Notes: generated by a model not told the origin, from the letters alone. A stretch of DNA of 64,000 nt from GCF_055900595.2 NZ_CM148325.1; one strand, 5' to 3'; shown: positions 2,093-50,283, numbered from the stretch's first letter. A program made the numbers and translations.

Positions 2093-2944
2093 TTAACCCG
2101 CGTAAGCTGCCAGCATTTCCTGCGCCGCCAGTTTACCCAACGCATTCGCTGAGAAAGGACTGTCGCCGGTGAGAAGTTTACGGTCCTTATGTACTCGCCC
2201 GGTGATGTCGTCATTAATGATGTTCATGCCCATTTTCTTCAGTTCTTCGCCGAAGTACCAGTTGAGATGACCCGGCATATAGCCTATCTCTGGCGTTTGT
2301 TTGTCAGCGGCGTCTGGGAATGCACAAATGGAATAACCATTCAGTGGGTTATCGCCGTGGCGAAGCGCCAGAAAAGCCGCCGGGCCGTGGCAAAGGGAGA
2401 TAACAAAACGGTCATTTTTGATTGCCCACTGTAAAGCAGCAGCCACGTCCTGGCTTTCTGGTAAACCAATAAGTGCGCCATGACCACCAGGAACAAAGAT
2501 TGCTGCATATTCGCTATCAGCGTTGAGGCTGGCGACAACATCCGCGAGTTTCTTCGGATTGCGGAACAACGATTTATGCTGCTCAAAGAATGGCATTACT
2601 TTTTCATCTTTGTGCGGCATAGCCCAGTATTCAAACTTGGTCATCAGACCGGAAATGGTCGCCACTTCGAATTCGAAACCTGCAGCATGGAGATGATACA
2701 ACGGCAGCAACGTTTCAATCGGATGGTTACCAGTCGAGAACAGTTTTCCGTTATCGGTCGGCAAATAACGTTCGTCCGCGGCGATCACCAGAATTTTATG
2801 CTTACCGCGATACGGTTTTGGATAGTCCACGCCATCAAGATCAGAGACGGGACTGGTATATTGGCTAAGCGAATATTCTGAAGGGAAGAATGCATTATCT
2901 TCAGCAATATCGACCTGCGGATTTTTACTTGTTTGAACAGTCAT
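2093..2944 (-). CDS. hchA: Hsp31 glyoxalase III / chaperone
   Basis: 283-aa ORF, DJ-1/PfpI family, translation matches HchA; ATG at 2944. Confidence 0.93.
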   Translation of the reverse strand: MTVQTSKNPQVDIAEDNAFFPSEYSLSQYTSPVSDLDGVDYPKPYRGKHKILVIAADERYLPTDNGKLFSTGNHPIETLLPLYHLHAAGFEFEVATISGLMTKFEYWAMPHKDEKVMPFFEQHKSLFRNPKKLADVVASLNADSEYAAIFVPGGHGALIGLPESQDVAAALQWAIKNDRFVISLCHGPAAFLALRHGDNPLNGYSICAFPDAADKQTPEIGYMPGHLNWYFGEELKKMGMNIINDDITGRVHKDRKLLTGDSPFSANALGKLAAQEMLAAYAG

Positions 2945-3307
2945 AGTGTATTCCTTATTGTTGCTTAGTTAGGGTAGTCACTATATTTGCGACTGAGCTG
3001 GTCGCTATTTTTAACCAGGCTGGAAAATTGAGTCAATATATCGAAAGCGGTAGTCGGCGGGTGTAAGTATGTAATGATGATGCTGCACTGGTGTTGAATA
3101 TTATTCACGCCAAATTTTCCTTATTGAGCAACGTCGTCGCAAGTGGCCTCAATGATTTTAGACCATTATCAGAGGTACGGGGCGGCGGGGAGAGATTTAG
3201 TGCTGTGGAATATTGTGGTGCTGATGAATATTTATATCCTGGATTGGTAGAGAAAAAGCTTATTTCATGCACTATTTTTGCAAATATTTCTATATGGGAA
3301 GCGTGTT

Positions 3308-3316
3308 TGTTACGGG
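3308..3316. repeat. Left copy of the 9-bp IS1 target-site duplication (TGTTACGGG)
   Basis: The identical 9-mer directly flanks both IS1 ends. Confidence 0.85.
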
Positions 3317-3371
3317 GGTGATGCTGCCAACTTACTGATTTAGTGTATGATGGTGTTTTTGAGGTGCTCCA

Positions 3372-3647
3372 GTGGCTTCTGTTTCTATCAGCTGTCCCTC
3401 CTGTTCAGCTACTGACGGGGTGGTGCGTAACGGCAAAAGCACCGCCGGACATCAGCGCTATCTCTGCTCTCACTGCCGTAAAACATGGCAACTGCAGTTC
3501 ACTTACACCGCTTCTCAACCCGGTACGCACCAGAAAATCATTGATATGGCCATGAATGGCGTTGGATGCCGGGCAACTGCCCGCATTATGGGCGTTGGCC
3601 TCAACACGATTTTACGTCACTTAAAAAACTCAGGCCGCAGTCGGTAA
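3372..3647 (+). CDS. insA: IS1 protein InsA
   Basis: 91-aa [24 protein letters not shown]..., Zn-finger/HTH InsA. Confidence 0.95.
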
Positions 3648-4069
3648 CCTCGCGCATACAGCCGGGCAGTGACGTCATCGTCTGCGCGGAAATGGACGAA
3701 CAGTGGGGCTATGTCGGGGCTAAATCGCGCCAGCGCTGGCTGTTTTACGCGTATGACAGGCTCCGGAAGACGGTTGTTGCGCACGTATTCGGTGAACGCA
3801 CTATGGCGACGCTGGGGCGTCTTATGAGCCTGCTGTCACCCTTTGACGTGGTGATATGGATGACGGATGGCTGGCCGCTGTATGAATCCCGCCTGAAGGG
3901 AAAGCTGCACGTAATCAGCAAGCGATATACGCAGCGAATTGAGCGGCATAACCTGAATCTGAGGCAGCACCTGGCACGGCTGGGACGGAAGTCGCTGTCG
4001 TTCTCAAAATCGGTGGAGCTGCATGACAAAGTCATCGGGCATTATCTGAACATAAAACACTATCAATAA
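3566..4069 (+). CDS. insB: IS1 InsB (transposase made as an InsAB' fusion by -1 frameshift)
   Basis: 167-aa ORF overlapping the insA 3' end in the -1 frame, the standard IS1 arrangement. Confidence 0.9.
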
Positions 4070-4084
4070 GTTGGAGTCATTACC

Positions 4085-4313: not shown

Positions 4314-5429
4314 TTAGAACTGGTAGACGATACCAACTGCAAACTGGTCATCAGCTGCTGCGCCAGTAATGGCGGCGTCATCTTTATCCAGCATGTTGAA
4401 TTTGTATGCAGTATAAACGTTCATGTTCTTATTAAAGTAGTACCAGGTACCAACTTCAATGTAGTTCACACGGTCAGCGTCAACATATCTATGTCCAGGT
4501 ACCCCTTTGATATCTTTACCTTTAGAGTACACATAACCTAAGGACGGACGCAGACCAAAGTCGAATTGATACTGAACAACCGCTTCAAAGTTCTGGGTTT
4601 CATTGATAAGTTGATCACGCATTATTGTATTGCCTTCTCGATCGGCAACACCTGTATCAATAGAACCCGGAGTCATATTACGAGTTTCGCCGTACATTAC
4701 AGCTGCGTAGACATTGTTCGCGTCATACTTTGCAGCCAACGACCACAGTTCAGCATTTGAACCGTTTCCATCGGCAACTTGATCGTTGGTGCGATCAGAT
4801 TTGCTATATGCACCAACGATACCAAAACCATTGATGTTATAGTCTACAGACAACGCATAGCCGTCACCATTTTGTTTCTTAGTGCTACGGTTGCTGTTTT
4901 TGCCTTGGTACTGAATCGCAAAATCAAGACCATCAACCAGGCCAAAGAAATCATAGTTACGGTAGGTTGCAACACCGTTGGTACGACCATTCATGAAGTT
5001 GTCAGCGGAAGCCCAGGAATCGCCACCCCATTCAACTAACATATCGGTATAAGCTGCGGCATCATAAGCAACACCGTAGTTACGGCCATAGTCAAATGAT
5101 CCTAACTCGTTATATTTCAAACCGGCGAAGGTTAAACGGGTTTTTTCCTGGTTTTCACCTTCGGGCTTGCTGGCGTCGAGGTTGTATTCAAACTGACCAA
5201 AACCAGTCAGTTCGCTGGTGATTTGGGTTTCACCTTTAACACCGAAACGAGCATAGGAGGTATCTTCGTTTTCGCTGTTATTATCATCAGTATTTGACCA
5301 GATGCGTTCGCCAACCATCTTGCCGTAGAAATCAACTTTATTGCCATCTTTATTATAAATTTCAGCCGCATTTGCTGCGCCAGCAACTAATAACGCCGGG
5401 ACCAGCATTGCCAGAACTTTTCTTTTCAT
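4314..5429 (-). CDS. yedS: Outer-membrane general porin, OmpC/NmpC family, apparently intact
   Basis: Track ORF 4314..5459; start trimmed to [21 protein letters not shown] signal peptide; C-terminal ...GIVYQF beta-barrel signature. Confidence 0.8.
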
Positions 5430-5976
5430 TATGTATTCCCTTGTGATTATAATCTTCATGAATATATCAATAAGTGCCGTTATCCAAAAAAAAGCACATT
5501 TGGATACTATTCTATGAAGTTCATTTTATTTTAAGGATTACATGTAACAAATGTATTTAAAAGATTTCAAAATGTTTCTAATCTATTTAATATAATTCGG
5601 GATTATGAATTCTGAATATAAACATTCATGAATATTATAAATGCATATCAATAAGTTATGAGTTGAGCAGAAAGATAGGGGGTATCAATGATTGTTGCGC
5701 TAAACACCTGGTGTGATCACGCGCACATTAATGAAGGAATAAAAAAAGCCGGCATCATGCCGGCCCCAAAAATATAAACAAGACGATAAAAGGCTAATAA
5801 CGTAAGCATCATGACACAGAATAATAAAAAGGTATAATTGTAATCAGTGCTAATATATTGATTAAATGAATTAATAAAGCCGATATCAAAGATAAATAAA
5901 ATCGCTCAAAACGATTTTTCCTGTATTCACTGCCGTTGCGCAAAAATTATCTATTTGTTCAAAAAATGAGTGAGTC

Positions 5977-6360
5977 TTGACTGGCTCATCCAATGTGGAA
6001 AAATGTGACTTTTATCACATAATAGTACTAAGTCTGAATTTTCCGGGTTATCTCAAAATGGAATACGGTTCGACAAAGATGGAAGAGAGACTCTCTCGCA
6101 GCCCTGGCGGCAAACTGGCTTTGTGGGCTTTCTATACATGGTGTGGCTATTTCGTCTGGGCAATGGCGCGTTACATCTGGGTGATGAGCCGGATCCCCGA
6201 TGCCCCCGTGTCGGGATTTGAAAGCGATTTAGGCTCTACCGCGGGAAAGTGGTTAGGGGCACTGGTCGGATTTTTATTTATGGCTCTGGTCGGGGCATTG
6301 TTAGGCAGCATTGCCTGGTACACCCGACCTCGTCCCGCACGTAGCAGACGCTATGAATAA
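5977..6360 (+). CDS. yedR: Small inner-membrane protein YedR
   Basis: ORF with two predicted TM helices; start uncertain (TTG at 5977, GTG at 5995 or ATG at 6058). Confidence 0.55.
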   Translation: MTGSSNVEKCDFYHIIVLSLNFPGYLKMEYGSTKMEERLSRSPGGKLALWAFYTWCGYFVWAMARYIWVMSRIPDAPVSGFESDLGSTAGKWLGALVGFLFMALVGALLGSIAWYTRPRPARSRRYE

Positions 6361-6399: not shown

Positions 6400-7095
6400 A
6401 TGGACTTACAACACTGGCAGGCACAGTTCGAAAACTGGTTGAAAAACCATCATCAGCACCAGGACGCGGCCCATGACGTGTGTCATTTTCGCCGCGTCTG
6501 GGCTACGGCACAGAAGCTGGCGGCAGATGACGATGTCGATATGCTGGTGATTTTAACCGCCTGTTATTTTCACGATATTGTGAGCCTGGCGAAAAATCAT
6601 CCGCAAAGGCAGCGTTCTTCAATCCTGGCGGCAGAAGAGACGCGTCGCCTGCTCCGTGAAGAGTTCGAGCAATTTCCGGCGGAGAAAATCGAGGCCGTTT
6701 GTCATGCCATTGCCGCTCACAGTTTCAGCGCGCAAATCGCCCCCTTAACAACGGAAGCTAAAATTGTCCAGGATGCGGATCGGCTGGAAGCCCTGGGGGC
6801 GATTGGCCTGGCGCGCGTGTTTGCCGTTTCAGGGGCATTGGGCGTGGCGCTGTTTGATGGTGAAGATCCGTTCGCACAGCATCGCCCGCTTGATGATAAA
6901 CGCTACGCGCTGGATCATTTCCAGACTAAGTTGCTGAAGCTACCGCAAACCATGCAAACCGCAAGAGGCAAGCAGCTGGCGCAGCACAACGCGCATTTTT
7001 TAGTCGAGTTTATGGCGAAGCTCAGTGCCGAACTGGCGGGGGAGAATGAAGGTGTCGATCACAAGGTGATAGATGCGTTTTCATCCGCTGGCTGA
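6400..7095 (+). CDS. yedJ: HD-domain phosphohydrolase YedJ
   Basis: 231-aa ORF with an HD motif (CYFHDIV). Confidence 0.8.
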
Positions 7096-7161
7096 GCGCG
7101 TGGCCCTAAATGGCTGTAATTATGTTAACCTGTCGGCCATCTCAGATGGCCGGTGAAATCT

Positions 7162-8580
7162 ATGCAGGAAAATATATCAGTAACCGATTCATACAGCACC
7201 GGGAATGCCGCACAGGCAATGCTGGAGAAACTGCTGCAAATTTATGATGTTAAAACGTTGGTGGCGCAGCTTAATGGTGTAGGTGAGAATCACTGGAGCG
7301 CGGCAATTTTAAAACGTGCGCTGGCGAATGACTCGGCATGGCACCGTTTAAGTGAGAAAGAGTTCGCCCATCTGCAAACGTTATTACCCAAACCACCGGC
7401 ACATCATCCGCATTATGCGTTTCGCTTTATCGATCTATTCGCCGGAATTGGCGGCATCTGTCGCGGTTTTGAATCGATTGGCGGACAGTGCGTGTTTACC
7501 AGCGAATGGAACAAACATGCGGTACGCACTTATAAAGCCAACCATTATTGCGATCCGGCGACGCATCATTTTAATGAAGATATCCGCGACATCACCCTCA
7601 GCCATAAAGAAGGCGTGAGTGATGAGGCGGCGGCGGAACATATTCGTCAACACATTCCTGAACACGATGTTTTACTGGCCGGTTTCCCTTGTCAGCCATT
7701 TTCGCTGGCTGGCGTATCGAAAAAGAACTCGCTCGGGCGGGCGCACGGTTTTGCCTGCGATACCCAGGGCACGCTGTTTTTTGATGTGGTACGCATTATC
7801 GACGCGCGTCGTCCGGCGATGTTTGTGCTCGAAAACGTCAAAAACCTGAAAAGTCACGACCAGGGTAAAACGTTCCGCATCATCATGCAGACGCTGGACG
7901 AACTGGGCTATGACGTGGCTGATGCAGAAGATAATGGGCCAGACGATCCGAAAATCATCGACGGCAAACATTTTCTGCCGCAGCACCGTGAACGCATCGT
8001 GCTGGTGGGTTTTCGTCGCGATCTGAATCTGAAAGCCGATTTTACCCTGCGTGATATCAGCGAATGTTTCCCTGCGCAGCGAGTGACGCTGGCGCAGCTG
8101 TTGGACCCGATGGTCGAGGCGAAATATATCCTGACGCCGGTGCTGTGGAAGTACCTCTATCGATATGCGAAAAAACATCAGGCGCGCGGTAACGGCTTCG
8201 GTTATGGAATGGTTTATCCGAACAATCCGCAAAGCGTCACGCGTACGCTGTCTGCGCGTTATTACAAAGATGGCGCGGAAATTTTAATCGATCGCGGCTG
8301 GGATATGGCCAAAGGTGAGAAAGACTTTGACGATCCGCAGAATCAGCAACATCGTCCACGTCGGTTAACGCCTCGGGAATGCGCGCGCTTAATGGGTTTT
8401 GAAGCGCCGGGAGAAGCGAAATTCCGCATTCCGGTTTCGGACACTCAGGCCTATCGCCAGTTCGGTAACTCGGTGGTCGTGCCGGTCTTTGCCGCGGTGG
8501 CAAAACTGCTTGAGCCAAAAATCAAACAGGCGGTGGCGTTGCGTCAGCAAGAGGCACAACATGGCCGACGTTCACGATAA
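7162..8580 (+). CDS. dcm: DNA-cytosine C5 methyltransferase Dcm
   Basis: Motifs FAGIGG and PCQPFS; start trimmed to MQENISVTD (residue 4 of the track ORF). Confidence 0.92.
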
Positions 8581-14053: not shown

Positions 14054-14332
14054 TTACCAGGATGATTCTCAAAACAGCACAAATAATCAAAGATGATTTT
14101 TTCGGGAGCGATCCCGTTGACGCCAGAGCCACCAAGGGGTGACGCACGTCACATTTCTATTCATAAGTAGCGTTAATCATTCATATCGCGAATATTTTCT
14201 TGTCAGCGAAAAAAATTGCGGATAAGGTGATGAACACATCAGATTTCCTGGTGTAACGAATTTTTTAAGTGCTTCTTGCTTAAGCAAGTTTCATCCCGAC
14301 CCCCTCAGGGTCGGGATTTTTTTATTGTGCAT

Positions 14333-29039: not shown

Positions 29040-29330
29040 AAGTATTTTATGAAGGAGCAACAGCATCGATTTTTATTTTAGAAAATAAATACGGCATACT
29101 CAACCTATTGGAGCCTGAACAATCCGGTGACTTCTGCGCTAATCGGGGACGTTTATAAGCACATATAATTGATATTATCGTCCTCCATCACAATTTCAGA
29201 AATGCACGTGTGATTTTTTTGCATCCGGCGTTTGGACTATGTGGAGTTCAAGAGTGGGAAAGTTACAAGAGGTTGAGGGGATAATTAAAGGGATGCTTAT
29301 GACATTAGATATCCGGATAGGTACGGATAT

Positions 29331-49980: not shown

Positions 49981-50056
<76 letters not shown>

Positions 50057-50110
50057 GTTTAAAAGACATCGGCCTCAAGCGGATGTCTGGCTGAAAGGCC
50101 TGAAGAATTT

Positions 50111-50184
50111 GGCGCGTTAACAAAGCGGTTATGTAGCGGATTGCAAATCCGTCTAGTCCGGTTCGACTCCGGAACGCGCCTCCA
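50111..50184 (+). tRNA. cysT: tRNA-Cys (anticodon GCA)
   Basis: 74-nt GGCGCGTTAACAAAGCGG...GGTTCGACTCCGGAACGCGCCTCCA. Confidence 0.93.
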
Positions 50185-50196
50185 CTTTCTTCCCGA

Positions 50197-50283
50197 GCCC
50201 GGATGGTGGAATCGGTAGACACAAGGGATTTAAAATCCCTCGGCGTTCGCGCTGTGCGGGTTCAAGTCCCGCTCCGGGTACCA
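50197..50283 (+). tRNA. leuZ: tRNA-Leu (anticodon TAA), long variable arm
   Basis: 87-nt GCCCGGATGGTGGAATCGGTAGACAC...GGTTCAAGTCCCGCTCCGGGTACCA. Confidence 0.93.

Follow-up and report, generated by a model that had tools for sequence, protein, structure and literature searches.

The AT-rich gap between yedS and drpB (yedR) of Escherichia coli is the known rseX small RNA locus

What does a strongly AT-rich stretch of DNA between two divergent genes hold, a bare spacer with promoters at its edges or something more? The question is raised by the gap between the porin gene yedS and drpB (yedR) in the window, a 64,000-nucleotide stretch of an E. coli chromosome, in which the gene order is hprR (94–627), hprS (627–1985), hchA (2093–2944, minus strand), IS1 (about 3306–4084), yedS, drpB, yedJ (6400–7095) and dcm (7153–8580). 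A first-pass annotation of this DNA had placed the gap at 5430–5976 and described it as very AT-rich, with long A/T runs. In composition this description is correct: GC content is 29.6% in 5430–5976 against 49.0% for the whole window, only 0.28% of the 547-bp windows are as GC-poor, and A/T runs of 5–8 bases are present (e.g. A8 at 5486 and A7 at 5741). The AT content of the intergenic region is thus well above the genomic background, as for an H-NS-silenced locus. Among the 547-bp stretches of the window, the one poorest in GC (28%) begins near 29276, outside the yedS–drpB locus. Of 5426 complete E. coli genomes, 4910 contain the 851-bp segment around the intergenic region, at 90–99.9% identity. 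The IS1 copy of the window, with its insA/insB ORFs at 3372–4069, separates hchA from the 3′ end of yedS; it is 98.8% identical to the IS1 of E. coli strain 100416, and NZ_CP062868, which is 99.9% identical over the 851 bp, has no IS1 at the hchA–yedS position.

An Rfam scan of 5200–6300 returned one significant match, the Hfq-binding small regulatory RNA gene rseX (RF01401), and a scan of the whole window gave the same match again. The 90-nt gene lies at 5741–5830 on the minus strand, and the match covers the full length of the model (positions 1–94 of 94), scoring 95.3 bits (gathering score 50; E = 1.6e-13). By the MG1655 annotation and by alignment, rseX is found between yedS and drpB on the yedS strand, as in K-12. 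The first-pass annotation had taken the gap to be free of genes and had itself named a conserved RNA gene as the result that would refute this; rseX is such a gene, and the empty-spacer reading is thereby refuted. The comparison with K-12 that it had proposed gives the same answer, as the curated MG1655 record places rseX (b4603, 91 nt) in the supposedly empty gap, with drpB on one side and the yedS pseudogene on the other. Compared with K-12 RseX (b4603, RF01401), the RNA encoded here agrees in locus, in orientation with respect to the flanking genes, and in core, hairpin 1 and terminator. Alignment to MG1655 revealed three point differences, namely C to A at 5803 in the hairpin-1 loop, U to G at 5767, directly preceding the terminator stem, and a tail shorter by one U; the length is 90 nt compared with 91 nt in K-12, and the downstream yedS is intact here whereas in K-12 it is a pseudogene. 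Overall, each testable defining feature of the RseX family was found, and the region is the known rseX locus; its central content is already known, and current understanding is unchanged.

Three weaker Rfam matches were rejected: STnc430 (25.2 bits against a gathering score of 47) and AniS (20.8 bits against 50) capture the rseX terminator hairpin only, and C0719 (13.9 bits against 50) is far under its gathering score. The whole-window scan also returned DsrA (102.5 bits) and three tRNA genes, at 14233–14319 and 49981–50280 (both plus strand).

These results bear directly on the view that the gap is a gene-free AT-rich spacer, holding only the yedS and yedR promoters and an H-NS nucleation site. 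This view can point to the AT richness itself, to the lack of any conserved ORF in the region and to the PGAP-annotated RefSeq records, in which the interval from the porin gene to drpB is bare of features. However, it is at odds with the full-length Rfam match and its terminator, with the annotation of rseX in the curated MG1655 record, with the retention of rseX in synteny across the genus Escherichia, and with the ∼91-nt transcript published for hns mutants (PMC8313858), and we give it very little credence.

The structure of rseX was considered together with its promoter. The gene ends in a Rho-independent terminator (5745–5767, minus strand), made up of the stem GGGGCCGGCA / UGCCGGCUUU, the loop UGA and a following U-run, and the rseX 3′ end was the only terminator-like site that a terminator scan found in 5300–6150. 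The minimum free energy fold of RseX shows hairpin 1 and the terminator, the latter being present in the centroid fold as well, and the stability of the fold is not unusual compared with shuffles (z = −1.27). No variation was seen in the terminator stem within E. coli, E. albertii and E. whittamii. Among eleven Escherichia sequences excluding E. fergusonii, the structure is 94% paired and no covariation was detected, because these sequences have diverged too little, so that this result is neutral on the fold. In E. fergusonii, the only species of the alignment in which the terminator loop is not invariant, the stem carries two compensatory G-C to A-U changes. With E. fergusonii included (12 sequences), 93% of cells are paired and three pairs are changed on both sides against 0.9 expected, a value reached by 4 of 500 shuffles. 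These compensatory changes, which come from a single lineage, lend modest support to the RseX terminator stem.

The rseX promoter region is assigned to 5831–5872 (minus strand) from motif coordinates, conservation and published work (PMC8313858). It contains the −10 element TACAAT (5842–5837) and a weak −35 element, TTAATC (5865–5860); the −10 pattern TAnnAT is kept in all Escherichia species examined, and a sigma-70 promoter of rseX is supported by 5′ RACE (Douchin 2006, as cited in PMC8313858). The best sigma-70-like match in the region is a different one, facing drpB: ATGACA-16-TATAAT at 5811–5838 on the plus strand, matching at 11/12. Its −35 lies inside rseX, in antisense, and its −10 overlaps the rseX −10 by 2 bp, so that the two form a back-to-back divergent pair. 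This site does not vary among E. coli strains; E. albertii has GATAAT instead, and conservation does not extend to E. fergusonii.

How far does rseX extend beyond E. coli? An exact-pattern scan with the rseX core, using one genome per bacterial species, gave nine loci. Five of these were confirmed by Rfam at 86.7–95.2 bits, all in Escherichia (E. albertii, E. whittamii, two further Escherichia species and E. coli E69); the four pattern matches in Desulfobacterales, Bacteroidales, Paenibacillus and Nostoc have no Rfam support and were dismissed as chance. The yedS–rseX–drpB–yedJ order, with orientations and spacings as in the window, is present in four of the five Escherichia loci, and the E69 locus stops just past rseX, so that only its yedS side is visible. 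E. fergusonii, found with DrpB as the anchor, has the same arrangement with a diverged rseX (68.6 bits). The exact-pattern scan had missed this species because the rseX core has diverged there, and the scan therefore does not allow rseX to be called exclusive to Escherichia. Lelliottia has drpB with neither the porin gene nor rseX, and an enterobacterial metagenome contig has a porin gene, a 545-bp gap (30% GC) and drpB, with no rseX match in the gap at E ≤ 0.1. Because this contig has the porin–gap–drpB arrangement without it, rseX is not an obligatory part of the region. Salmonella has been treated as having an RseX homologue, with Northern blots giving no signal (PMC1804206, PMC3632133).

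An alignment of nine E. coli strains, in which divergence was taken as mean pairwise difference, divides the region into slowly and rapidly changing segments: 2.6% in the yedS-proximal segment (5430–5605), 10.5% in the spacer that follows (5606–5740), 5.4% in rseX, 10.5% in a second variable spacer (5871–5940) and 1.9% in the drpB promoter and leader (5941–6057). The first of the two spacers, which extends over 5599–5740 (no strand), separates the rseX terminator from the yedS regulatory block and evolves fast. Within it, the palindrome GTGATCAC at 5713–5720, which contains a GATC site, is conserved across Escherichia species. The adjoining TAATGTG (minus-strand reading, 5724–5730) is likewise conserved across Escherichia species while the surrounding DNA diverges, and both stand just downstream of the rseX terminator. 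Two copies of a further motif, TTCATGAATAT...ATATCAATAAGT, are present, at 5456–5475 in the yedS leader and at 5626–5656 in this variable spacer, with exact 12-mers 181 bp apart. The repeated motif, the palindrome and TAATGTG may be sites for regulators. In some E. coli strains IS1 lies inside the intergenic region itself (two matches among the genomes searched). The copy in strain 100416 was inserted ∼50 bp upstream of where rseX starts, at the equivalent of 5879–5887 of the window (locus positions 891–1670), with a 9-bp target duplication, GCCGATATC, and it splits the rseX promoter from the drpB-side DNA.

The pattern of conservation also bears on whether rseX has any native function, or is instead an evolutionary relic, or a fortuitous promoter–terminator pair, that becomes visible only by artificial overexpression or removal of H-NS. 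Such a reading would account for the failure to detect native RseX in wild-type E. coli despite many attempts (PMC8313858) and in Salmonella under envelope stress (PMC1804206); it would also fit the variation of the rseX 5′ end and hairpin-1 loop between strains, a fold no more stable than that of shuffles, and the related enterobacterial locus without rseX. However, neither the rseX core, GUUAUUAGCCUUUUAUC, nor the terminator varies across Escherichia species, against a divergence of at least 10% in the flanking spacers, the terminator stem is kept in E. fergusonii by compensatory changes, and the position and orientation of the gene are constant throughout the genus. Further, transposon data suggest a requirement for rseX in S. 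Typhimurium (PMC3632133), and specific Hfq-dependent targets have been validated (PMC8313858, PMC11979758). We therefore regard a functionless rseX as improbable.

We also considered the possibility that the region encodes a small protein. The first-pass annotation had described it as being without ORFs, which holds for ORFs of at least 60 aa and fails for shorter ones, because six ORFs of 28–44 aa are present (5431–5517, 5474–5560, 5688–5777, 5717–5812, 5809–5943 and 5886–5993). Two of them, 5809–5943 and 5886–5993, both with TTG starts, are intact in most strains examined. However, the other four are broken in several strains by frameshifts, including changes in the length of A-runs, or by stops, the two TTG-start ORFs themselves undergo non-conservative replacements in divergent strains, and no small protein is annotated here in the curated MG1655 record. 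Across nine E. coli strains, none of the six showed coding-like conservation. The persistence of 5809–5943 and 5886–5993 is explained by their overlap with conserved rseX and drpB promoter DNA, and a small protein encoded here is next to inconceivable to us.

On its right side, the extent of the region depends on the start of drpB, a cell-division gene (plus strand, 6058–6360) whose 100-aa product matches the NCBIfam equivalog NF038392 at 151.6 bits against a cutoff of 50. The first-pass annotation had pointed out that the yedR start is ambiguous, and rightly so: the in-frame candidates are TTG 5977, GTG 5995, ATG 6058 and a fourth that it had not listed, ATG 6079, which is the start used by PGAP (93 aa, ‘M29’). 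The ambiguity has been settled by experiment in favour of ATG 6058. Yahashiri et al. found that translation of drpB begins at ‘ATG-22’ of the old GTG annotation, which corresponds to 6058 in the window, on the evidence of stop-codon scanning, start-codon mutagenesis and Western blotting of a chromosomal GFP fusion (PMC7648144); the curated MG1655 drpB has the same start (100 aa, ‘M22’). Because drpB starts at 6058, the intergenic region spans 5430–6057 (628 bp), and the right boundary of 5976 has to be moved accordingly. The same study put both the promoter of drpB and a transcription start seen by RNA-seq into the interval from GTG-1 (5995) to ATG-22 (6058) (PMC7648144). Within this published interval, our promoter scan found TGGAAA-16-CATAAT (5996–6023, plus strand), which is the probable drpB promoter, the hexamer assignment being our own reading. 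These positions lie inside the former yedR coding sequence, in a region that is 98% conserved. The annotations of two strains, 08-00022 and O157:H7 FRIK804, treat drpB as a pseudogene, one copy having an internal stop and the other a frameshift.

On the other side of the region lies yedS (4314–5429, minus strand), an intact gene of 371 aa plus stop that PGAP calls ‘porin’. Its ATG is at 5429, where PGAP also starts it in a strain 99.9% identical over 851 bp, and is preceded by the Shine-Dalgarno sequence AAGGGA (5442–5437). In NCBIfam, YedS scores as a general porin, under the cutoffs for OmpF, OmpC and PhoE, and the gene is a pseudogene in K-12 and in O157:H7 FRIK804. Upstream of the ATG, the DNA from ∼5598 onwards is nearly invariant in an alignment of five Escherichia species, and a 37-bp core (5499–5535) is invariant across Escherichia, E. 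fergusonii included, save for one base in one species. E. fergusonii retains 89% identity over 5430–5520 and 54% further upstream, where it is effectively unalignable. From this conservation, we delimit a yedS-proximal block at 5430–5582 (minus strand) that would comprise the 5′ leader, the core promoter and activator sites.

Four tandem 10-bp repeats at 5540–5579 on the minus strand, AGAAACATTT, TGAAATCTTT, TAAATACATT and TGTTACATGT, resemble OmpR half-sites and are conserved across Escherichia species. When the 10-mers are read from 5579 to 5540 against the OmpR half-site consensus, three of the four have ACA cores, the exception being the second, TGAAATCTTT. The yedS upstream DNA was also compared with that of K-12 ompC. 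The two give a colinear local alignment with a score of 35, against 18.1 ± 3.0 for dinucleotide shuffles (z = 5.6; 0 of 500 shuffles reach 35) and 16 for the reverse-complement control, so that similarity to the ompC–micF intergenic region is detectable. An exact 11-mer, ACATTTTGAAA, is common to the yedS repeats and the ompC upstream element, and we take it to be the heart of the OmpR C1 box of ompC. By this alignment the yedS regulatory region is homologous to that of ompC, and the two would be related by descent; the repeats at 5540–5579, judged from their sequence, are candidate OmpR-type activator sites of yedS.

A promoter scan found five promoter-like sites in the region against 4.1 ± 2.0 in shuffles, i.e. 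no enrichment, and because such hexamers are no commoner than in shuffles, promoter assignments other than the published ones are guesses. With this reservation, the candidate yedS core promoter is TTGTTA (5550–5545)-16-TAAAAT (5528–5523) on the minus strand, and an alternative −10 on the same strand, with a weak −35, is TAGAAT (5514–5509). Either candidate would give a leader of ∼75–90 nt, and both lie within the invariant core. Because the block at 5430–5582 is near-invariant across Escherichia and resembles the ompC region, it probably holds the yedS promoter and leader; the proposal of the first-pass annotation that the yedS promoter lies within the intergenic region is thus plausible.

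The leader and the signal peptide are nearly invariant; in the mature N-terminus of yedS, nucleotide difference among E. coli strains rises to 31% (mean pairwise). Between species, yedS alleles have 53–55% amino acid identity to those of other Escherichia loci, and the YedS of the window is 66–67% identical to that of E. fergusonii. Such a pattern would be expected if diversifying selection, or allelic exchange limited to the porin body, had acted on yedS. In E. fergusonii, the locus (1–2339) has two tandem porin genes upstream of rseX and drpB, and the drpB-proximal porin is 66%, and the distal one 53%, identical to the YedS of the window. Could yedS and rseX then form a horizontally acquired AT-rich cassette, silenced for that reason? 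This idea is compatible with our preferred explanation of the region as a whole. It is in keeping with the low GC content, the yedS alleles just 53–67% identical between strains and species, the Lelliottia drpB without a porin gene, and an H-NS-with-StpA backup of the kind typical of acquired genes, ‘possible Salmonella origins’ having been mentioned (PMC8313858). However, a porin gene stands beside drpB in every Escherichia species examined and in the distant enterobacterial contig, and the leader block is conserved in place. Arrangement and leader being conserved in place, the locus seems to have been resident for long, with allelic exchange restricted to the body of the porin gene, and we consider the acquisition of the whole cassette unlikely, if still worth bearing in mind.

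Salmonella ompS1 provides a known parallel to this arrangement: it is a normally silent porin gene of the OmpC/OmpF family that has, like yedS, an AT-rich upstream region, and it is OmpR-dependent. The likeness drawn here is one of label, yedS being labelled ‘ompS1’ in PMC2731931, and of regulatory logic. H-NS/StpA keep ompS1 quiescent, and LeuO lifts this silencing (PMC4264507). The micF–ompC and micC–ompN loci are similar to rseX–yedS in that the gene of an Hfq-dependent, porin-repressing sRNA stands upstream of a porin paralogue, and in both the sRNA represses a porin other than its neighbour. In contrast to their divergent arrangement, rseX is in tandem with yedS, upstream of it and on the same strand, and RseX has no sequence relation to MicF or MicC in Rfam scans. 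Duplex energies of RseX and of MicF with the yedS leader were not better than those of shuffles, as was also the case for the published RseX–ompC pair (94/300), so that the method does not inform on these pairings.

Silencing of the region by nucleoid proteins, as the first-pass annotation had thought likely, is supported by published K-12 work on RseX in hns and stpA mutants (PMC8313858). In K-12, RseX is undetectable in the wild type and appears on Northern blots of hns mutants as a band of ∼91 nt together with shorter products, and its increase in RNA-seq is strongest in the hns stpA double mutant (PMC8313858). Protein-occupancy peaks with H-NS, Fis and Rob motifs have been reported at −42/−32, −143/−118 and +1/+20 of rseX, the peak at −42 to −32 having an H-NS motif (PMC8313858); the equivalents in the window are about 5862–5872, 5948–5973 and 5830–5811. 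The rseX promoter stretch (5831–5880) is identical in the window and MG1655 and, because of this identity, we infer that H-NS/StpA silencing of rseX also holds in the strain of the window. By analogy with Salmonella ompS1, the silencing would extend to yedS. Once made in K-12, RseX represses ompA and ompC mRNAs in an Hfq-dependent manner (summarised in PMC7648144; PMC8313858), fimB and ihfB mRNAs (PMC8313858), and fepA through its terminator loop, the last in an Hfq- and RNase E-dependent manner (PMC11979758).

Taken together, the explanation that we prefer, and consider highly probable as a whole, is that the yedS–drpB intergenic region is a compound regulatory region and not an empty spacer. 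From the yedS side, it would consist of the conserved block, the fast-evolving spacer, rseX, the second variable spacer, and the drpB promoter and start. In this explanation, AT-rich DNA bound by H-NS, with StpA as backup, would keep rseX silent under laboratory conditions; rseX would be transcribed in the yedS direction from its own weak sigma-70 promoter up to a strong intrinsic terminator; RseX, once made, would act with Hfq to repress the five K-12 target mRNAs named above; and drpB would avoid silencing by means of a promoter near its own ATG.

The practical value of the rseX and drpB results is in annotation. In non-K-12 E. coli, the PGAP RefSeq annotation omits rseX and starts drpB at 6079 instead of 6058, and because it leaves the interval from the porin gene to drpB blank, strains other than K-12 seem to have an empty locus there. 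As yedS is not a pseudogene here, the region may have two outputs under its control, a functional alternative porin and an sRNA that represses porins; a report has connected YedS with the entry of carbapenems in a clinical isolate, which we mention as a lead only. More tentatively, and at present we rather doubt than believe it, yedS and rseX might form one co-silenced ‘porin-swap’ module under a single H-NS/StpA-coated domain. If so, the domain would extend over the rseX promoter as well as the yedS promoter/leader block at 5430–5582, and the near-invariance of the yedS leader, beside hypervariable porin bodies and rapidly changing spacers, would reflect a dense constraint from OmpR-like boxes and sRNA pairing sites. 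Relief of silencing, e.g. by LeuO or a host signal, would then switch on the YedS porin together with an sRNA that takes away the major outer-membrane proteins OmpC and OmpA.
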